A DNA stretch of 59,657 bases, the filler included. It is 5 parts of 5 records of this genome, joined end to end, with 100 filler letters (N's around TTAATTAATTAA, not from the genome) between each part and the next. Parts side by side here need not be neighbours in the genome. Positions count along the whole stretch, not along the records: positions 18,970 to 32,932 come from SRR22947727_214; 4 more parts are not named here. The stretch is one strand, 5' to 3'. Below the pieces are notes generated by a model that was not told where the DNA came from, searched no databases, and saw nothing but the letters and a program-made list of their open reading frames with translations. Both the position numbers and the translations under genes were made by a program. Below are positions 4,185 to 53,283 of the stretch, in pieces (the first letter of the stretch is position 1; every line of letters begins with the position of its first letter).

Positions 4185-5159
4185 ATGAGTCACCTTATGT
4201 CTAATTTGAATACTAAAACATTTATTATAGGTTTTATTTTTTTAATTGGATTTAATTCTACAGCCAGCTCTAATTCAATTGAAGATATTATTATTAAGAT
4301 TAATACAATAGAAAATAGAATCAAAGTTTTAGAAAAAGCTACTTTTAATAAAACAAATTCCAGTCAAAGTAATTTTAATGCTAGCAATTATGATTCAATT
4401 ATTACAAAGCAATCAATTCAAATTTCTGAACTTCAAAATCAAATACAGGAATTAACAGGAAGTATAGAAGAAGTTTTATTTAGCTTGCAGACATTAATAA
4501 ATAACTTCAATAATTTTAAAGCCGACACTGAAATGAGATTTTCAGATGTTAATATAGTTTCTTCTGCTAACAATAATCAAGCAGAAGCTCCAGCAGTAAA
4601 TGAAGTTATTGACTATGACTTAGCTCCAAAAAATCTTGGAACACTTAAAATGCCTACAGATGATGACAATGATTTTTCAAGTGAACAAGAAATCACAGCA
4701 ACTATTGATCAAGAAAGTCTAATCTTAGTTGAAGATAAGAAACCTGAATTATTGATATTGCCTGAAGGCTCAGAAGTTGAACAATATAATTTCAGTATAA
4801 ACCTGCTAACATCAGGCGACTATGAAGGGGCAGAAGGTGCGCTAAAAGAGTTTATAAAAATTTCAAAAGATAATGATCTTCTATCAAATTCATTTTTTTG
4901 GCTTGCAGAAACTTATTATGTAAGAGAAAACTATAAAGATGCCGCAAAAAATTACTTATCTTTATATCAGAACCATTCAGATAGCCCTAAAGCGCCAAAC
5001 GGCCTCTTAAAGCTCGGTATTTCATTAGTAAAAATGGGACAATTAGAACAAGGATGTGCCTCATTAGCCAAATTAAGAATAAGTTATCCAGAAACAGAGC
5101 AGTCTATTTTAGATAGAGGCGATATTGAGATTAAGAGAAATGGTTGTAAAGTTAGCTAA
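4185..5159 (+). CDS. cpoB: Cell division coordinator CpoB (YbgF), coiled coil + TPR
   Basis: Follows pal; coiled-coil N-terminus and TPR C-terminus (FWLAETYY...KAPNGLLKLG...GCASL). Start uncertain (TTG 4167, ATG 4185 or 4197). Confidence 0.88.
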   Translation: MSHLMSNLNTKTFIIGFIFLIGFNSTASSNSIEDIIIKINTIENRIKVLEKATFNKTNSSQSNFNASNYDSIITKQSIQISELQNQIQELTGSIEEVLFSLQTLINNFNNFKADTEMRFSDVNIVSSANNNQAEAPAVNEVIDYDLAPKNLGTLKMPTDDDNDFSSEQEITATIDQESLILVEDKKPELLILPEGSEVEQYNFSINLLTSGDYEGAEGALKEFIKISKDNDLLSNSFFWLAETYYVRENYKDAAKNYLSLYQNHSDSPKAPNGLLKLGISLVKMGQLEQGCASLAKLRISYPETEQSILDRGDIEIKRNGCKVS

Positions 5160-6459
5160 GCCAAAAAAATCTAAAAATTTTGATCCTATATTAGAAAATG
5201 ATTTTTTTAACAGTCTTTTAAAATTTAAAATAAATGAAACAATTGCAGTAGCCGTATCTGGTGGATCGGATAGCTTGGCTCTTACTATCTTATTAAAAAA
5301 GTTTTCTATAAAAAATAATATTGAGCTAAGAGCACTAAGTATTGATCATGATTTAAGAAGTTCATCTAAAGATGAATTAAAATGGTTAGCATCCGAGCTG
5401 AAAGAAAAGAAAATAAAACATAAAATAATTAAATGGAAAAACCCTAAGCCAAACTCAAATATTCTTTCAAATGCAAGAGATAAAAGATATGAGCTTTTAC
5501 TTAAAGAATGTGAAAGATTAAATATAAGGTATCTATTTACAGGACATCATTTAGATGACCAGGTTGAGAATGTATTGCTACGACTCATTCGTGGAAGTGG
5601 AATAAAAGGACTTGGCTCCCTTCGTGAACAATTTAAATTCACAAAAAGCAAAGTCAATATTTTAAGACCTTTGTTAAGATATCCAAAAAAAAGCTTAATT
5701 TCCTTCTTAGCAACTGAAAAACAAAAATATATTATAGATCCTACTAATTTTGATACTAATTTTGATCGATCAAGAGTCCGTAAAGTATCTAGCCATCTTA
5801 TTAATGAAGGGTTAAATAATAGACGACTATTAAGCACCATAAAAAATTTAAAGAACGCGAATAATTCAATTAATTACTTGATTAATTCATCACTTAAAAG
5901 TTTTGTTAGGGTAAATAGTCGAGGAATAATTTCTATATTGCTAGAAAGATTTGTGTCACTACCAGAGGAGGTAAAATTTAGATCTATATCTAAGTTACTA
6001 AAATTTGTTGGTAAAGGCAAAAATACTCCTCGATCTAAAAATATCTTGAATGTTTTAAATAGCATATCTGAAAATAACTTTAAAAATTTAACTATAGCAG
6101 GGTGTCTGATAAAAAAGAAAAACAAACAAATACTTATACTACCTGAAGTTACTAGAAAACTAAGCACTACCAAAATTACTTCAAATAATTTTATTTGGAA
6201 TGATCAATATAAGATAATAATGGAAAATGACTTTGCAAAGGGATTATCAGTTCAATATCTTGGAGCAAATGGACTTATGACATTACCAAAAAAATATAAC
6301 AATAAATTGATGAAAGATCTTTATCCAGCTTCTTATCTAAGTTTATGGAAAGGTAAGAAACTAGTTGCAGTTCCAGACATTAACTATTTAATCAAAGATA
6401 TTAGGTCTATTAAAAAATATACTTTAATTGATATTCACCCATACTTAATGGAGAGGTGA
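5140..6459 (+). CDS. tilS: tRNA(Ile)-lysidine synthetase
   Basis: PP-loop AVSGGSDS, DHDLR, GHHLDDQVE, RPLL; conserved cpoB-tilS-ftsH order. ATG 5140 preferred over TTG 5125. Confidence 0.93.
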   Translation: MVVKLAKPKKSKNFDPILENDFFNSLLKFKINETIAVAVSGGSDSLALTILLKKFSIKNNIELRALSIDHDLRSSSKDELKWLASELKEKKIKHKIIKWKNPKPNSNILSNARDKRYELLLKECERLNIRYLFTGHHLDDQVENVLLRLIRGSGIKGLGSLREQFKFTKSKVNILRPLLRYPKKSLISFLATEKQKYIIDPTNFDTNFDRSRVRKVSSHLINEGLNNRRLLSTIKNLKNANNSINYLINSSLKSFVRVNSRGIISILLERFVSLPEEVKFRSISKLLKFVGKGKNTPRSKNILNVLNSISENNFKNLTIAGCLIKKKNKQILILPEVTRKLSTTKITSNNFIWNDQYKIIMENDFAKGLSVQYLGANGLMTLPKKYNNKLMKDLYPASYLSLWKGKKLVAVPDINYLIKDIRSIKKYTLIDIHPYLMER

Positions 6460-18869: not shown

Positions 18870-18969
18870 NNNNNNNNNNNNNNNNNNNNNNNNNNNNNNN
18901 NNNNNNNNNNNNNTTAATTAATTAANNNNNNNNNNNNNNNNNNNNNNNNNNNNNNNNNNNNNNNNNNNN
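18870..18969. other. Artificial contig linker
   Basis: 44 N + TTAATTAATTAA (stops in all six frames) + 44 N. Confidence 0.99.
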
Positions 18970-27893: not shown

Positions 27894-28322
27894 ATGAAAA
27901 AATTATCTATTTTAGTTTTTACTTTTCTATTTCTTACCGGATGTTATCAATCTATGGCACTACTTGGTCCAGCCACTGGAGCTGCAAATGGAAAAGTTGT
28001 TCAATCCTCACTTCAGTCAGCTGCTAGTTATGGCATAAAAAAACAAACGGGTAAGTCTCCCTTTGAACATATAGTAGCTTATTCAGAACAAAAAGATTTA
28101 GAAAATTGTGGAGAAGAGAATAAACAAACTAAAAAATGCCTAAACTTAAATGAAAAATTATTATCAGCTCAATCATTAGTTGAGCAAAAAGATCAAATTA
28201 TTTCAGAAATTAAAACGGAGTCTAAAGAAGTTATACAAGAAAAAGCAAAATCAGCTAGAGAGCTAGCTATTTCTGTTCAAGCAGCGATTATAGAAAAATC
28301 AAAAATTAAATATCTAGATTAA
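27894..28322 (+). CDS. Putative lipoprotein, unknown function
   Basis: MKK-hydrophobic-LTGC lipobox. Confidence 0.7.
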   Translation: MKKLSILVFTFLFLTGCYQSMALLGPATGAANGKVVQSSLQSAASYGIKKQTGKSPFEHIVAYSEQKDLENCGEENKQTKKCLNLNEKLLSAQSLVEQKDQIISEIKTESKEVIQEKAKSARELAISVQAAIIEKSKIKYLD

Positions 28323-28705
28323 CTCGAAGGCAAGTTTTCATTTTTCCAGCCTTGGTCTTCACCATTACCTTCAAAACCATCACTTATATTAATACAGTTA
28401 AATCCTTCTTGTGATAATAATTGAGCTGCCATCATAGATCTTGCACCCGATCTACAAATGATTAACAAATCTTTTTTTATGTCAGCTTTATTTTTTACTT
28501 CAGCAACAAATCCTTTATTAGCCTCTGGGTCTGGTGATCTTTGGATAGTTATAAAATGTGTCTTGATACCTAGCGCTTCACCATTAGGTTTTCCAATTTG
28601 ATCCCATTCCTCTTTGGTTCTGACATCTAAAAGTTCGATATTTTTATTATTATTTAAAAAAGATTTAATGTCCTTACTAGGTAAATTTCTTATTTGTTTA
28701 GACAT
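28319..28705 (-). CDS. Single-domain rhodanese/sulfurtransferase
   Basis: LLDVRTKEEW, active-site CRSGARS, GFEG...GW. Likely ATG at 28705, 1 nt after the metE stop. Confidence 0.88.
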   Translation of the reverse strand: MSKQIRNLPSKDIKSFLNNNKNIELLDVRTKEEWDQIGKPNGEALGIKTHFITIQRSPDPEANKGFVAEVKNKADIKKDLLIICRSGARSMMAAQLLSQEGFNCINISDGFEGNGEDQGWKNENLPSS

Positions 28706-28706
28706 T

Positions 28707-30965
28707 TTAAATTTTTCTAAGTTCTTTTGCTGCCAAAACCATTTTAGATAAAGCATCTATAGTTTCAGGCCATGCACGAGTTTTTAATCCACAATCAGGG
28801 TTAACCCATATTCTAGTTGGATCAATTAATTTTGATGCTTTCTGAATTAGCTGTTTCATTTCATCCGTTGAAGGTACTCGGGGTGAATGAATGTCATAAA
28901 CACCTGGTCCAATTTCATTTGGATATTTAAATTTTTCAAAAGTGGTTAAAAGTTCCATTCTTGATCGAGATGTTTCAATGGAAATTACATCCGCATCTAA
29001 CGCAGCAATAGAATCGATTATGTCCTCAAATTCTGCGTAACACATATGTGTATGAATTTGAGTTTCATTTTTAACTACAGCTGCAGAAATTTTAAAACAA
29101 TCTACTGACCAATTTAGATACTCTTTCCAATCTTTTCGTTTTAGTGGCAAACCTTCTCTTAAAGCAGGTTCATCAATTTGAATCATCCGGATACCATTTT
29201 TTTCTAAATCTTCCACCTCATCACGAATAGCAAAACCTATTTCTTGTGCTGTATATTTTCTTGGTTGATCATCTCTAACAAAAGACCATTGTAAAATGGT
29301 AATAGGGCCTGTTAACATTCCTTTAACAATTTGCTTTGTTTGTTCTTGGGCAAATTTTGACCATCTCACTGTCATAGGATTTGGCCTAGATACATTTCCA
29401 AAAATAATTGGTGGCTTAACGCAACGAGAACCATAACTTTGTACAAATCCACTAGATGTAAAAGTAAATCCATTTAATTGTTCACCAAAGTACTCAACCA
29501 TATCATTTCTTTCAAACTCACCATGTACGATTACGTCAATACCCATCTCTTCTTGTTTTCTAATCGCGTCTATTGTTTTATCTTCTAGGAATTTGTTATA
29601 ACTTTTCTCATCAAGCTCGCCTCGTTTAAATTTTGCACGTGCTTGCCTTACATCAGTAGTTTGAGGGAAAGAACCAATTGTTGTTGTTGGAAACTTTGGT
29701 AAACCAAAAATACCCTTTTGTATTTTTGCTCTTTCTACATAACTAGATTTCCTCTCAGTTATTGATTTATTAATAGTTTTTATTCTATCTTTGACTTTAT
29801 CATCATGAATCAGTTTAGAAGTTTTTCTATCCTGAACATCTGCTGTATTTTTATTAAGTTCTTCTTGATGAGAGTTATTATCTATTACATTTTTAATAAC
29901 ATTTAACTCTTGTAGCTTTTGTTTTGAAAAAGATAGCCATCTTTTTATTTCAGCAGGAACTTTTTGCTCTAAATCTAAATCGTAAGGGGTATGCAAGAGA
30001 GGGCAAGATGATGCAATGATAACATCATTAGAAATATTACTCTTAATGAATCCAATTTTTTCTTGTAAATTTGACTTCCAAACATTTCTTCCATCAACCA
30101 CGCCCAAAGATAATTGTTTATTTGAGTTTTTAACGTAGTTTTTATTTTTTGTTCCTCGGACTAGATCTAAATGAATAGCATCTACATTACTTGCAAATAC
30201 TTCTTTTTTAATATCTTCATTTAAGTCTTCAAAGTAAGTTGCAACTAAGATCTTACTTTTGCCAGCTGCAACCTTAAGTTCATTTAAGGTATTTTTGATT
30301 TGAGATACGACATCTGTATCTAAATCTTTAACCAAGATAGGCTCATCTATTTGTATCCATTCCGCGCCAAGCTCAGAAAATTTTTTAATAACATCCTTGT
30401 AAACAGGTAATATTTTACTTAACAAATTAATCGTTTTATTTCCGTCTATACCTTTAGCTAATAATAAAAATGATAACGGACCTAAAATAATTGGCTTTGT
30501 ATTATATCCAGCAGCTTTTGCTTCTTCATATTCTGCAAAGGGCTTATTAGAACTTAACTTAAAATTTTGGTCTTTTGATAATTCTGGAACTAGATAATGG
30601 TAATTTGTATCAAACCATTTAGTCATTTCTAAAGCCGGCACATCTAATTCAGCTGTTTGTGAACCACGAGCCATAGCAAAATAGGTCTTAAGATTTACTT
30701 CATTACCATCCCATTTGTATCTTTTAGGTACTGCACCTAATAAGCAAATAGCATCGAGCACATGATCGTAAAAAGAAAAATCATTTGAAGAAATTAAATC
30801 AACACCATTATCCTTTTGCGTCTGCCAATTTTTTTTTCTTAAATCTTTAGCAACATTCTGTAATTCATTTTCTTGGATTTCACCTTTCCAAAATTGTTCT
30901 AAAGCTTTTTTTAATTCTCTTTTAGGTCCTATTCGTGGGTAACCAATGGTTGCTACTTTAATCAT
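28707..30965 (-). CDS. metE: Cobalamin-independent methionine synthase
   Basis: Full-length two-barrel protein: GYPRIGPKRELK, MTKWFDTNYHY, TTTIGSFPQT, zinc ligands HTHMC, ISIE and NPDCGLKTR. Confidence 0.97.
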   Translation of the reverse strand: MIKVATIGYPRIGPKRELKKALEQFWKGEIQENELQNVAKDLRKKNWQTQKDNGVDLISSNDFSFYDHVLDAICLLGAVPKRYKWDGNEVNLKTYFAMARGSQTAELDVPALEMTKWFDTNYHYLVPELSKDQNFKLSSNKPFAEYEEAKAAGYNTKPIILGPLSFLLLAKGIDGNKTINLLSKILPVYKDVIKKFSELGAEWIQIDEPILVKDLDTDVVSQIKNTLNELKVAAGKSKILVATYFEDLNEDIKKEVFASNVDAIHLDLVRGTKNKNYVKNSNKQLSLGVVDGRNVWKSNLQEKIGFIKSNISNDVIIASSCPLLHTPYDLDLEQKVPAEIKRWLSFSKQKLQELNVIKNVIDNNSHQEELNKNTADVQDRKTSKLIHDDKVKDRIKTINKSITERKSSYVERAKIQKGIFGLPKFPTTTIGSFPQTTDVRQARAKFKRGELDEKSYNKFLEDKTIDAIRKQEEMGIDVIVHGEFERNDMVEYFGEQLNGFTFTSSGFVQSYGSRCVKPPIIFGNVSRPNPMTVRWSKFAQEQTKQIVKGMLTGPITILQWSFVRDDQPRKYTAQEIGFAIRDEVEDLEKNGIRMIQIDEPALREGLPLKRKDWKEYLNWSVDCFKISAAVVKNETQIHTHMCYAEFEDIIDSIAALDADVISIETSRSRMELLTTFEKFKYPNEIGPGVYDIHSPRVPSTDEMKQLIQKASKLIDPTRIWVNPDCGLKTRAWPETIDALSKMVLAAKELRKI

Positions 30966-30983
30966 TTATCTTCCTTTTTTTAA

Positions 30984-31385
30984 TTAATCTTTATGATGTT
31001 GCCAAAGCTTATCTGTTCCACCAAAGTGGCCCCAGTCACTATCAGCTTTCATTGTACTACTAATTCCACCTCTTGGACGAAATTGTATCTCTAGCCTTAA
31101 CCTGAAAGGTTTGTAAGCTTCGATCAAGTGTTTATACATTACATCGATCGCACGCTCATAACTTATGATCGTATCTCGATATTGTAATAAGTATTCTTTT
31201 AAACTTTTTAATTCGACAGTTGATTTTTCACCATGAAACCAAATTTTAATGTGCCCAAAATCAGGTTGGTTATGTACTCCCATAAAAGTAAATTCAGGAA
31301 TATCAATATATTGTTCATATCCACTAGCAGGATTAGGTATGGACTTTAAAAGTTTACCGTCAATTTTGTCCCAAAGTTTTTTCAT
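30984..31385 (-). CDS. QueF-like T-fold protein lacking the catalytic cysteine
   Basis: PEFT..., QPDFG, QueF motif ELKSLKEY and PRGGIS are present, but PEFTFMGVH replaces PEFTxLCP; the protein has no Cys at all. Confidence 0.85.
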   Translation of the reverse strand: MKKLWDKIDGKLLKSIPNPASGYEQYIDIPEFTFMGVHNQPDFGHIKIWFHGEKSTVELKSLKEYLLQYRDTIISYERAIDVMYKHLIEAYKPFRLRLEIQFRPRGGISSTMKADSDWGHFGGTDKLWQHHKD

Positions 31386-31397
31386 ATGAATTTTTTA

Positions 31398-31428
31398 TTA
31401 CCCCACTAAAAAATTTTTAGTGGGGTAA
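31398..31428. repeat. Perfect 15-bp inverted repeat between metY and the QueF-like gene
   Basis: TTACCCCACTAAAAA-A-TTTTTAGTGGGGTAA; followed by A-rich, not U-rich, sequence on the coding (minus) strand. Confidence 0.85.
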
Positions 31429-31434
31429 ATCTCT

Positions 31435-32724
31435 TTATGCTAATGCCTGTTTAATGTCAGCAATAATATCATCGGGATGTTCAATACCAATTGATAGTCT
31501 AACATATCCAAGAGTTACCCCAGCAGCTAACTGCTCTTCAGGCGAAAGTTGACTGTGAGTAGTCGAGGCTGGATGAATAGCTAAACTTCTTGCGTCACCA
31601 ATGTTTGCAACATGGTAAAGCATTTTAAGTTTATCTATAAATTTAGCACCGGCTTCAACTGTACCTAAGTCAATACCAACAAGAGCGCCATCACCACCCT
31701 TTAGATATTTTTTTGCACGAGCTAAAATTTCTCCATCATAGTTTGTTGAATAAATAACTTTCTTCACACTTTTGTGAGATTTTAAAAACTCAACAACTTT
31801 TGCTGCATTATTGTTATGTTGTTTCATTCTAAGCGCTAATGTTTCAAGCCCTTGGATGATCTGGAAAGCATTAAATGGACTTAATGGAGCCCCCAAGTCT
31901 CTAAGCACTACAACTCTTGCTCTGATGACAAAAGGAATGTTTGCTCCAGTTAATACCGGAACAGCATCTGCCCATACAGCACCACCATAACTTTGATCAG
32001 GTTCATTAAGTAATGGTTGTCTTTTTCTATCTTTAATCCAATCAAAGTTTCCACCATCAACTATAATTCCACCAATGGAAGTACCGTGACCACCAATGTA
32101 TTTAGTCAGTGAATGCATTACTATTGCAGCACCATGTTCTAAAGGCTTACAAATAATTGGTGCAGCAGTATTATCCATAATTAATGGAATTCCTTTTTTT
32201 CTACCAATATCTGAAACTTCTTTAATTGGAAAAACTCTCAAATATGGATTTGGAAGCGTCTCTCCATAGTAAGCTCGAGTTTTATCATCAGTTAACTTTT
32301 CAAAGTTTTTTGGATCAGCAGGATCTGCAAATCTAACTTCAATACCTTGTTGTCTTAGAGTATTTTTAAATAAATTTACTGTTCCACCGTACAAGTCAGT
32401 TGAAGCAACAATGTTATCACCAGCTTGTGCTAAGTTTTGGATACAATACGCAGAAGCAGCTTGTCCTGAACCTACTGCTAAAGCAGCAACACCACCTTCT
32501 AAAGCAGCTACTCTTTTTTCAAGAACGTCTACTGTTGGATTCATAATCCGCGTATAAATATTACCAAATTCTTTTAAACCAAATAAATTTGCAGCATGTT
32601 CTGCATTTTTAAATTGGTAAGAGGTAGTCTGGTAAATAGGTACCGCTACTGATGTTGTTGCTGGGTCTGCTCTGTAATCAGATCCATGCAATCCTATTGT
32701 TTCCGGATGTTTTAAATCAGCCAT
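31435..32724 (-). CDS. metY: O-acetylhomoserine aminocarboxypropyltransferase (sulfhydrylase)
   Basis: PIYQTTSY, YTRIMNPT, PLP lysine HSLTKYIGGHG, ANIGDARSL, RLSIGIE. Confidence 0.95.
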   Translation of the reverse strand: MADLKHPETIGLHGSDYRADPATTSVAVPIYQTTSYQFKNAEHAANLFGLKEFGNIYTRIMNPTVDVLEKRVAALEGGVAALAVGSGQAASAYCIQNLAQAGDNIVASTDLYGGTVNLFKNTLRQQGIEVRFADPADPKNFEKLTDDKTRAYYGETLPNPYLRVFPIKEVSDIGRKKGIPLIMDNTAAPIICKPLEHGAAIVMHSLTKYIGGHGTSIGGIIVDGGNFDWIKDRKRQPLLNEPDQSYGGAVWADAVPVLTGANIPFVIRARVVVLRDLGAPLSPFNAFQIIQGLETLALRMKQHNNNAAKVVEFLKSHKSVKKVIYSTNYDGEILARAKKYLKGGDGALVGIDLGTVEAGAKFIDKLKMLYHVANIGDARSLAIHPASTTHSQLSPEEQLAAGVTLGYVRLSIGIEHPDDIIADIKQALA

Positions 32725-32828
32725 TTTTTTTCTCCCTTATTGTTTCTCTGTTTGTGCTCATCATTTCTCTCCTTTTTGTTAGGAGAAAACGAGTAGCCGT
32801 TAAACGAGGGGTTTAATCTAGTATTCAT
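32712..32828 (-). CDS. Putative 38-aa leader peptide (uORF1) initiated from the riboswitch RBS
   Basis: AAGGAGAAA-ATG at 32828; MNTRLNPSFNGYSFSPNKKERNDEHKQRNNKGEKKWLI*; stop overlaps the metY start region. Confidence 0.4.
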   Translation of the reverse strand: MNTRLNPSFNGYSFSPNKKERNDEHKQRNNKGEKKWLI

Positions 32829-32829
32829 T

Positions 32830-32894
32830 TTCTCCTTTTTAGTACTTCGGCAAAATGCCAGGTGTACAATATGGTTCAAATACCCGGTTTAATT
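32830..32894 (-). promoter_or_regulatory. SAM-V riboswitch
   Basis: Minus strand AATTAAACCGGGTATTTGAACCATATTGTACACCTGGCATTTTGCCGAAGTACTAAAAAGGAG. P1 CCGGGT/ACCTGG, UUUGAAC loop, pseudoknot TTGTAC/GTAC(T)AA, small GGCA/TGCC hairpin, ends in the RBS; upstream of metY, as known for SAR11 SAM-V RNAs. Confidence 0.9.
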
Positions 32895-32906: not shown

Positions 32907-32932
32907 AAAAAAAAACCACCGACTAAAGCGGT
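32907..32932 (-). terminator. Rho-independent terminator of an upstream gene, truncated at contig end
   Basis: Minus strand ACCG-CTTTAGT-CGGT-GG followed by T9. Confidence 0.55.
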
Positions 32933-33032
32933 NNNNNNNNNNNNNNNNNNNNNNNNNNNNNNNNNNNNNNNNNNNNTTAATTAATTAANNNNNNNNNNNN
33001 NNNNNNNNNNNNNNNNNNNNNNNNNNNNNNNN
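32933..33032. other. Artificial contig linker
   Basis: 44 N + TTAATTAATTAA + 44 N. Confidence 0.99.
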
Positions 33033-45546: not shown

Positions 45547-45646
45547 NNNNNNNNNNNNNNNNNNNNNNNNNNNNNNNNNNNNNNNNNNNNTTAATTAATT
45601 AANNNNNNNNNNNNNNNNNNNNNNNNNNNNNNNNNNNNNNNNNNNN
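45547..45646. other. Artificial contig linker
   Basis: 44 N + TTAATTAATTAA + 44 N. Confidence 0.99.
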
Positions 45647-53183: not shown

Positions 53184-53283
53184 NNNNNNNNNNNNNNNNN
53201 NNNNNNNNNNNNNNNNNNNNNNNNNNNTTAATTAATTAANNNNNNNNNNNNNNNNNNNNNNNNNNNNNNNNNNNNNNNNNNNN
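53184..53283. other. Artificial contig linker
   Basis: 44 N + TTAATTAATTAA + 44 N. Confidence 0.99.

Follow-up and report, generated by a model that had tools for sequence, protein, structure and literature searches.

A cysteine-less QueF-like protein in the metF position of a SAM-V-controlled SAR11 methionine operon is a candidate flavin-free methylene-tetrahydrofolate reductase

What does a relative of a queuosine enzyme do in a methionine operon? The question is raised by a stretch of assembled DNA of 59,657 nucleotides (nt), here called the window, in which a SAM-V riboswitch (SAM, S-adenosylmethionine) stands before four genes: metY, the gene for a QueF-like protein that we call QueFL, metE and a rhodanese gene. 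A first-pass annotation of the window had proposed that the QueF-like T-fold protein supplies a missing step in a SAM-regulated route to methionine. We lean, by a small measure, towards the reading that QueFL is an NADPH-dependent analogue of methylene-tetrahydrofolate (methylene-THF) reductase (MTHFR; MetF in bacteria) that would feed MetE or MetH. The evidence for a role at the MetF step is genomic and unusually coherent, and the role proposed is one of functional analogy, not of family membership.

QueFL has a single Pfam match, PF14489 (66.2 bits), and no match to PF02219 or to a flavin-binding family. Against TIGR03139, the preQ1 synthase model, it scores 76.9 bits, under the cut-off of 86.9. 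The translation of the window gene contains no cysteine. An AlphaFold (AF2) model with a predicted local distance difference test (pLDDT) score of 90.7 has the T-fold, and the closest PDB matches to the model are the B. subtilis QueF entries 4f8b and 4fgc (template modelling (TM) score 0.78-0.80, 28% identity). A homologue search in a library clustered at 50% identity returned 921 representative proteins at E ≤ 0.001. The best 150 of these were aligned and split into canonical QueF, which carries ..TS(L/V)CP.T.QPDF.. and ..(F/H)(H/Y)E.., and a large cysteine-less group, which carries ..TF(L/M/E/I)G...QPDF.., ..SYER.., PRGGISS and a C-terminal DSDW..GG..W.

We found that Gly36 of QueFL aligns with Cys55 of B. 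subtilis QueF (4f8b) in a profile of 41 cysteine-less sequences, and that the entry for the C55A mutant, 4fgc, differs from 4f8b at exactly this column. In the profile alignment Asp42 falls on Asp62 of QueF and E58-Y65 on its E78-Y85 QueF/NADPH motif, and S75-Y76-E77-R78 aligns with F95-H96-E97-D98. ELKSLKEY of QueFL stands opposite ESKSLKLY of B. subtilis QueF and agrees with the motif E(S/L)K(S/A)hK(L/Y)(Y/F/W). Residues G36, D42, L59, K63, S75, Y76, E77, P93, R105, G106 and G107 are invariant in the 41 sequences. Glycine holds the Cys55 column in all 41 aligned members, as well as in the 68 viral and 61 metagenome open reading frames (ORFs) that were scored among 80 viral and 80 metagenome loci.

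QueFL therefore shares with unimodular QueF of the YkvM type (B. subtilis 4f8b/4fgc) the T-fold, the ELKSLKxY QueF/NADPH motif and the equivalents of Asp62 and Glu97, but Cys55 is replaced by an invariant Gly, His96 by Tyr and Asp98 by Arg, Cys99 has no counterpart, and the DSDW..GG..W motif is additional. The accessible portion of a review of QueF (PMC13740343) describes two subfamilies with invariant Cys, Asp and Glu and reports loss of activity for both C55A and C55S; that portion makes no use of the term 'QueF-like'. By its residues, then, QueFL is not a nitrile reductase, and the description of the protein as non-canonical in the first-pass annotation was correct. In a phylogenetic tree canonical QueF forms a separate clade (100/97), while SAR11 QueFL groups with two other cellular sequences (98/86) and is nested among viral sequences. 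Archaeal QueF-L, the archaeosine synthase, has lost the use of NADPH. It is likewise a T-fold paralogue of QueF recruited elsewhere (5jyx/5k0p; query TM score (TMq) 0.63-0.67 and 14% identity to QueFL), but it keeps the cysteine, the title of 5jyx naming a covalent thioimide intermediate, whereas QueFL has lost the cysteine and kept the NADPH motif. We found no published work linking the QueFL family to methionine synthesis or MTHFR, most subscription journals lying outside the search.

The window has a near-identical counterpart in L001, a contig of a Pelagibacteraceae metagenome-assembled genome (MAG), with 99.3% DNA identity over 4601 nt and 100% identity of QueFL. This MAG, G001, stands in for the window's genome in all genome-level comparisons, and the host is a SAR11 bacterium of the brackish/freshwater IIIa/LD12 kind. 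We surveyed an even sample of 201 Pelagibacterales genomes, taking PF08267 at E ≤ 1e-20 as full-length MetE and E ≤ 1e-82 as a strong MTHFR match. Full-length MetE was present in 13 genomes. A strong MTHFR match was present in 12, which are exactly the MetE genomes other than G001, and 12 of 12 have metF immediately before metE on the same strand. QueFL was found in G001 only, where it occupies the position directly upstream of metE in which the other 12 have metF. A profile search of G001 found no MTHFR candidate, and no canonical QueF was found in the 201 genomes. Among 61 relatives of G001, QueFL is present in two (G001 and G003) and full-length MetE in the same two. No MTHFR match was seen in the 37 of these relatives listed first (0.5-1.1 Mb), and the matches in 20 of the remaining 24 are weak (18.6-30.4 bits). 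The missing step of the first-pass annotation can thus be narrowed to the metF slot, in genomes without a metF match.

The MetE of the window is 77% identical to that of G004, a metF-metE genome. Its locus (L124 2954-7392, minus strand) consists of a SAM-II-like leader, metF, metE and a gene for a 389-amino-acid (aa) Cys/Met pyridoxal phosphate (PLP) enzyme, with metF and metE overlapping by 4 nt. The SAM-II-like match is sub-threshold (25.5 bits in a permissive scan), and no Rfam riboswitch reached its gathering threshold in this locus or in the locus of G426, a second QueFL genome treated below. MetF is a TIM-barrel flavoprotein. In the SAR11 metF-metE operons MetF (PF02219) has the same slot as QueFL, upstream of an orthologous metE and behind a SAM-responsive leader, but there is no relationship of sequence or fold to the T-fold protein QueFL, and only the reaction proposed is the same. 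As far as the accessible text of two SAR11 studies goes, HTCC1062 is stated to be without metE and metH and, among seven SAR11 genomes, metE occurs only in HIMB114 (PMC5069961), and IIIa and LD12 genomes have up to three metE copies and no dmdA (PMC10030771). Short MetE-like proteins with the C-terminal catalytic domain only (~98-115 bits to PF01717) were also observed in SAR11 genomes without full-length MetE; such an ORF lies in G001 (C4:5123-6109), with counterparts of ~350 aa in G005, G011, G043 and others.

SAM-V and metY (86-91% identity) are present in each of five near relatives that have neither QueFL nor metE. Two of them, G205 and G216, have the order SAM-V-metY-rhodanese, G220 has SAM-V-bhmT-metY-rhodanese, and in G212 and G209 no rhodanese follows metY. 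Because three of the five carry SAM-V-metY-rhodanese, QueFL-metE appears to be an inserted two-gene module; judged by gene order, the operon of this clade goes back to a metY-rhodanese core, and the QueFL-metE pair has been inserted between its two genes. The additional gene of G220 (L128 2844-3902, minus strand), placed between SAM-V and metY, encodes a 352-aa BhmT-like homocysteine methyltransferase. It seems that the operon can take up different modules for homocysteine methylation, either bhmT or QueFL-metE.

Outside SAR11 the family is rare in cellular genomes of the Pseudomonadota sample that we inspected. A QueF-family match was present in 317 of 401 genomes, a tally that includes the unpublished genome G618. 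Residues were inspected in the top two matches and the next 28 loci: the top two, in G001 and G426 (E ~1e-52 to 1e-54), are cysteine-less, the next 28 are canonical QueF (E ~1e-30 to 1e-31), and the remaining matches score lower. In G426 and in G666, which are two of the 61 relatives of G426, QueFL is followed by a sulfatase gene and is 73% identical to that of the window.

Searches for the family gave 277 clusters at 90% identity, 220 confirmed relatives in IMG/VR and no fewer than 398 in the metagenomes of JGI, where annotation names include '7-cyano-7-deazaguanine reductase'; 80 viral and 80 metagenome loci were kept. An ORF matching the QueFL profile is present in 80 of 80 viral loci, and all 68 that were scored are cysteine-less. 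These 68 loci fall into 30 groups at ≥ 85% identity, and MetK and/or AhcY lies no more than two genes from QueFL in 6 of the 30. On one viral contig (L125; 273 kb, 82% complete) the order is DnaJ-MetK-QueFL-MetH-AhcY, with a MetH of 1178 aa and overlapping genes. No MTHFR was found on this record or on a 289-kb, 96%-complete record with QueFL-AhcY, and a scan of viral contigs with the MetH of L125 recovered only L125 itself. Among deposited phages, tblastn with SAR11 and viral QueFL gave only matches of ≤ 39% identity, annotated as QueF or GTP cyclohydrolase, and no close cysteine-less member. The only match in PHROGs was phrog_5949, 'GTP cyclohydrolase', and the ESM Atlas returned only QueF-named clusters with Uroviricota as the commonest taxon, which is a lead only.

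We found that a gene of the methionine/SAM cycle lies within three genes of QueFL in 20 of 80 viral and 18 of 80 metagenome loci. At the same distance, sulfur genes occur in 0/80 and 7/80, ThyX in 0/80 and 6/80, and canonical MetF in 0/80 and 0/80. When ORFs within 1.5 kb are counted, a methionine/SAM-cycle neighbour is found for QueFL at 22 of 80 viral and 21 of 80 metagenome loci, against none of 28 canonical QueF loci used as a control. The genomic context of QueFL is thus one of methionine/SAM-cycle genes and not queCDE as for QueF, and the link that the first-pass annotation had noticed in the window recurs in many other genomes and viruses, soil bacteria and uncultured phages among them. 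The metagenome arrangements include metB-like-QueFL-homoserine dehydrogenase (hom), metB-metY-metX-QueFL-hom, QueFL-metK-ahcY, QueFL divergent from metH-x-metK-ahcY, ThyX-QueFL, QueFL-rhodanese-TusA-cysteine desulfurase and QueFL-CysJ-CysI. At two loci (L169 3239-5738 and L172 623-4900) metH is split into a gene for homocysteine binding (343 aa) and one for the pterin/B12/activation part (904 aa), and QueFL stands between them, on contigs that encode a type IX secretion (CHU_C) protein. The sole step missing from the QueFL cassettes, and not found in the SAR11 genomes with QueFL, is methylene-THF reductase.

Three further observations concern the viral neighbourhoods. A gene for DUF2452 (PF10504; ~140 aa) follows QueFL, in most cases immediately and otherwise within three genes, at 12 of 80 viral loci and one metagenome locus (for example L084 6586-7011, L063, L060 and L044), and DUF2452 may be a partner of QueFL. 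In L044 a canonical bimodular QueF (QueF_N + QueF, 312 aa; 4422-5360) is directly upstream of QueFL; the two lie side by side and therefore are not redundant copies. In L111/L123 (1500-5967) a DUF444-SpoVR-PrkA trio lies just upstream of the viral QueFL and a PP-loop ATPase just downstream. This trio has reportedly been seen in pelagimyophages.

How might a protein of this kind act at the MetF step? Folate is the one pterin of the methyl cycle, and flavin-independent mycobacterial MTHFR, a divergent member of the MetF family, is a precedent for reduction of methylene-THF by NAD(P)H without flavin; the fold of QueFL differs from that of the mycobacterial enzyme. In the scheme that we propose, MetY would make homocysteine (or methionine, from methanethiol), MetE would methylate homocysteine with 5-methyl-THF, and QueFL would supply the 5-methyl-THF, replacing the flavoprotein MetF. 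Hydride would pass from NADPH directly to the N5-iminium carbon of 5,10-methylene-THF. QueFL has kept the NADPH motif, the general-acid Asp and the Glu that anchors the 2-amino-4-oxo-pyrimidine ring, and has lost the cysteine of covalent catalysis, needed only for nitrile (thioimide) chemistry. That T-fold enzymes bind purines or pterins through a conserved Glu is established and is restated in the accessible portion of PMC13740343. The N5-iminium carbon would be topologically equivalent to the exocyclic imine carbon of the second, non-covalent half-reaction of QueF, in that the carbon on N5 of the methylene-THF iminium would lie peri to the 4-oxo group as does the exocyclic carbon on C7 of 7-deazaguanine. 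Because QueF already reduces an imine and the peri geometry is alike, a QueF-type site may be pre-arranged for hydride transfer to methylene-THF. In other bacteria the same family would serve methyl cycles that run on MetH or MetE, and QueFL would be an auxiliary gene, beside MetK, AhcY or MetH, of many uncultured phages.

A wider proposal, on which we judge the evidence to be evenly balanced, is that QueFL founds a flavin-free, NADPH-dependent MTHFR family that arose from QueF by loss of covalent catalysis. The family would have displaced MetF in situ in some SAR11 and would complete methionine operons in soil bacteria and in bacteria with type IX secretion genes. It would have spread mainly by large uncultured aquatic phages that run a complete methyl cycle with their own MetK, AhcY and sometimes MetH.

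Several findings weigh against an MTHFR role. The substrate assigned to QueFL is deduced from genomic context and conserved residues. G001 and G003 are MAGs of ~1.0 Mb and may be incomplete. G426 and G666 carry an MTHFR homologue (119 bits) and dihydrofolate reductase (DHFR) besides QueFL. The MTHFR of G426 lies in a cluster of MttB, corrinoid protein, DUF1638, MetV-like (DUF5981), MetF, pterin methyltransferase and RACo genes (L126, C4 1138-8755), which resembles the catabolic MtgBCD-metF2 arrangement as given in the accessible text of PMC12478193. Because the cluster is of a catabolic kind, this MTHFR need not serve methionine synthesis; the presence of MTHFR beside QueFL in these genomes still weakens a strict complementarity of QueFL and MetF. 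We note that the cluster itself looks like a quaternary-amine demethylation system feeding methyl-THF oxidation. About three quarters of the QueFL loci have no methionine-related neighbour, and the locus counts overstate independence because there are near-duplicates among the viral and metagenome loci. Finally, the 7 of 80 metagenome loci with sulfur genes adjoin rhodanese-TusA-cysteine desulfurase, CysJI or sulfatase, and an MTHFR role does not specifically explain such neighbours, which suggest either a wider link to a sulfur/methionine regulon or a different function in some clades.

Could QueFL instead be another NADPH-dependent pterin or folate reductase, such as the missing DHFR of organisms with ThyX, tied to methionine synthase only in that both draw on one folate pool? 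A pterin reductase of any sort would fit the conserved Glu/Asp pocket and NADPH motif, DHFR_1 is absent from the SAR11 genomes G001, G003 and G004, and ThyX is directly upstream of QueFL in 6 of 80 metagenome loci, a context that fits a DHFR role equally well and so counts against MTHFR in particular. However, G004 and other SAR11 without QueFL are also without DHFR_1, so SAR11 covers the DHFR step in another way; within SAR11 the presence of QueFL goes with MetE and a missing metF rather than with ThyX; the MetK-QueFL-MetH-AhcY cassette is without exactly the MTHFR step; and G426 and G666 have DHFR and QueFL together. We consider this explanation unlikely, although it is the likeliest of the alternatives. 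Next in order, and unlikely as well, is a non-catalytic binder or regulator of the methyl cycle (for example of folate or a SAM metabolite), or an enzyme of an unrecognised reaction, the metF slot being coincidental. No activity is known for QueFL, and its contexts are mixed, with DUF2452 at 12 of 80 viral loci, a U5 RNA methyltransferase gene at 11 of 80 metagenome loci, and DNA polymerase III alpha and ClpP elsewhere. On the other hand, Asp42, Glu77 and the NADPH motif are strictly conserved across ~30-50% identity, and the slot holds metF in 12 of 12 other MetE SAR11 genomes while the QueFL genomes have no metF match.

A part in mobilising or assimilating sulfur for the synthesis of homocysteine or cysteine, such as reductive sulfur release or transfer with rhodanese-type proteins, appears quite unlikely to us. 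The operon of the window does end in a rhodanese gene, QueFL-rhodanese-TusA-cysteine desulfurase occurs in L166 and L174 with partial forms in L150 and L164 (QueFL-rhodanese) and L168 (QueFL-rhodanese-TusA), QueFL-CysJ-CysI occurs in L191, and there is a sulfatase gene after QueFL in G426 and G666, and one at two genes' distance in L157. Yet QueFL has no cysteine or known sulfur-handling motif, and its conserved residues are binders of a guanine- or pterin-like ring and NADPH. Moreover, the rhodanese adjoins metY without QueFL in three of the five SAR11 relatives, QueFL coming and going with metE, and sulfur-assimilation genes are absent from all 80 viral loci, including the MetK/MetH/AhcY cassettes. 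The weakest reading, and in our view a highly improbable one, follows the automatic annotation and makes QueFL a preQ0 reductase or other queuosine/7-deazaguanine enzyme. It would account for the PF14489 match and the JGI names, tRNA-guanine transglycosylase (TGT) is present in G001 and G003, and a canonical bimodular QueF directly precedes QueFL in L044. TGT is, however, present in all five genomes checked, with or without QueFL, and no real QueC was found in G001, G003, G004, G205 or G426, where only ORFs of 380-607 aa gave weak PP-loop matches. The catalytic Cys is absent across the subfamily, and its replacement by Ala or Ser kills QueF (PMC13740343, accessible portion). QueFL also falls under the TIGR03139 cut-off, canonical QueF is in none of the 201 Pelagibacterales genomes and forms its own clade, and methionine/SAM-cycle neighbours, found at about a quarter of QueFL loci, are found at none of the 28 canonical QueF loci.

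The features of the operon and its leader are collected in the table. The gene calls and Rfam bear out the four co-oriented genes behind SAM-V that the first-pass annotation had described, with their gaps of 49, 18 and 1 nt; SAM-V and the four genes are on the minus strand.

Table. Coordinates of the operon, its leader and the adjoining join in the window
Feature	Coordinates	Strand	Basis
Artificial contig join (N44, TTAATTAATTAA, N44)	32933..33032		Not biology
3' part of an intrinsic-terminator hairpin and T9 run	32932..32907	minus	Cut by the join at 32933
SAM-V riboswitch aptamer, Shine-Dalgarno AAAAAGGAG at its 3' end	32894..32829	minus	Rfam RF01826
uORF1 (upstream ORF), 38 codons, overlaps the metY start	32828..32712	minus	ORF call; ATG 4 nt after GGAG
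uORF2, 15 codons, MMSTNRETIREKKNG	32764..32717	minus	Own Shine-Dalgarno; stop overlaps the metY ATG (ATGGCTGA)
metY, O-acetylhomoserine sulfhydrylase (PLP enzyme), 429 aa	32724..31435	minus	TIGR01326, PF01053
QueFL, cysteine-less QueF-like T-fold protein, 133 aa	31385..30984	minus	PF14489
metE, cobalamin-independent methionine synthase, 752 aa	30965..28707	minus	NF003556, TIGR01371
Single-domain rhodanese, 128 aa from the MSKQ start	28705..28319	minus	PF00581

The assignments of the other three genes are well above their cut-offs. MetY scores 571.6 bits against TIGR01326 (cut-off 495.1) and 391.5 bits against PF01053 over residues 16-428. MetE scores 1118 bits against NF003556 (cut-off 541) and 1082 bits against TIGR01371 (cut-off 930), with both Meth_synt_1 and Meth_synt_2 present. 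The rhodanese scores 34.7 bits against PF00581 (cut-off 22.2), and its translation contains CRSGARS, which we take to be the active-site loop with the catalytic Cys. The longest rhodanese ORF would start at 28756, inside metE, and a convergent lipoprotein-like gene on the plus strand (27894-28322) shares its last nucleotides with the end of the rhodanese gene.

The order ATP-grasp gene, leader, metY-QueFL-metE-rhodanese recurs in L001, L002 and L003, the QueFL of L002/L003 being 89% identical to that of the window. At least three quarters of the operon's sampled sequence words are present in 14 RNA-library runs. The metY/QueFL, QueFL/metE and metE/rhodanese junctions are bridged by RNA-library contigs in 4 of 4 runs from four studies (for example X7 record 29, 29598-31907, and X2 record 9, 28345-29358), although such contigs cannot prove a single transcript, and possible DNA carry-over also counts against reading them as one. 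The depth of RNA contigs drops from metY to metE and the rhodanese gene in 4 of 4 runs, contig depth being unable to rank genes. The shared gene order and the bridged junctions agree with the single SAM-controlled unit that had been proposed. The unit is not the self-contained route of the first-pass annotation, since the operon covers neither homoserine activation nor the source of sulfur. The sulfur supply that the annotation ascribes to the rhodanese is conjectural; a rhodanese gene beside metY is the usual background in this clade. Nor is it undescribed throughout: the QueFL-metE pair is new, but SAM-V upstream of metY is a published archetype (PMC5069961, accessible portion). As a kind the operon is ordinary; QueFL belongs to an uncharacterised, widespread and mostly viral family.

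At least five contigs are strung together in the window, which is a pseudo-molecule. Artificial joins of N44, TTAATTAATTAA and N44 lie at 18870-18969, 32933-33032, 45547-45646 and 53184-53283, and gene neighbourhoods cannot be read across the four because they are artificial. For the same reason the acyl-CoA dehydrogenase fragment beyond 32933-33032 is unrelated to the operon. This join cuts the leader 39 nt upstream of the SAM-V aptamer. L001 extends upstream of the join, and its leader has, in order, a TTGACA/TATAAA promoter-like pair, a SAM-II-like element, a hairpin with T9, and SAM-V. The terminator region, within the tandem leader L001 4343-4490, reads ACCACCGCTTTAGTCGGTGG-T9. The SAM-II-like element is a sub-threshold match to RF00521 (22.5 bits against a gathering threshold of 36; E 0.0049 in a 361-nt search); the contig join leaves it out of the window. 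Contigs from the RNA libraries of two studies stop at 32915, the first T past the terminator stem, and another run reads through; the contig ends are no more than a weak hint. Just upstream of the leader is a gene for a RimK-like ATP-grasp protein of 305-308 aa (L001 3419-4342, L002 519-1445, L129 280-1197), which lies outside the riboswitch-controlled unit.

SAM-V is the sole Rfam family at gathering threshold in the whole 59.7-kb window (75.4 bits against 41, E 1.4e-10, model positions 1-66 of 66), and the element is likewise present in L001-L003 and L127-L131. Four nt past its GGAG (32835-32832) stands an ATG, at 32828, that opens uORF1, not metY, whose own ATG is 104 nt downstream of the SAM-V Shine-Dalgarno. 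An insert of ~90-105 nt with two short uORFs separates that Shine-Dalgarno from metY in the window, L002, L127 and L129. L130 and L131 do not have this insert (~90 nt), and their metY ATG immediately adjoins the SAM-V Shine-Dalgarno. The start position of uORF1 is kept, as ATG in the window/L001 and L127/L129 and as GTG in L002/L003. Its length and frame vary among relatives, but it is always open at least to uORF2. The peptide core of uORF2, xTxRET(I/L)R, is conserved in L002, L127 and L129, and in the centroid fold its Shine-Dalgarno is held in a UCUCCU/AGGAGA hairpin; the whole leader folds with a z of -1.91, 7 of 200 shuffles folding as well.

In this arrangement the SAM-V aptamer would gate translation initiation at its own Shine-Dalgarno, which here would serve uORF1; uORF1 would lead, via the conserved uORF2 with its stop over the metY ATG, into metY. 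From its sequence the leader may thus be a translational relay, uORF1 to uORF2 to metY, from a SAM-gated start site. For 'Ca. Pelagibacter ubique' HTCC1062, the accessible text of PMC5069961 places SAM-V upstream of metY, bhmT and mmuM with a response to sulfur limitation, and reports SAM binding and translational repression by SAM-V for metY. The same riboswitch family thus precedes metY in both organisms. In the window, however, SAM-V serves a uORF with a ~100-nt relay to metY, the direct arrangement being that of L130 and L131, and where HTCC1062 is stated to be without metE and metH, the operon of the window continues with QueFL-metE-rhodanese.

To our knowledge, nearly all cells rely on methylene-THF reductase to commit one-carbon units to methionine and SAM, and a single flavoprotein family is known for this enzyme. 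If the reading of QueFL as an MTHFR analogue is true, an unrelated T-fold enzyme of 133 aa would be a new solution to this central metabolic step, and would show plainly how an enzyme fold can find a new use once its catalytic nucleophile is lost. Many genes automatically annotated as '7-cyano-7-deazaguanine reductase' would have to be re-annotated. The gap of MetE without MetF in reconstructions of brackish and freshwater SAR11 would be closed. Phages would be shown to be capable of encoding an entire methyl cycle, a point of relevance to how they fuel DNA methylation and SAM-dependent steps during infection. QueFL may thus be a new enzyme family for a central one-carbon step.

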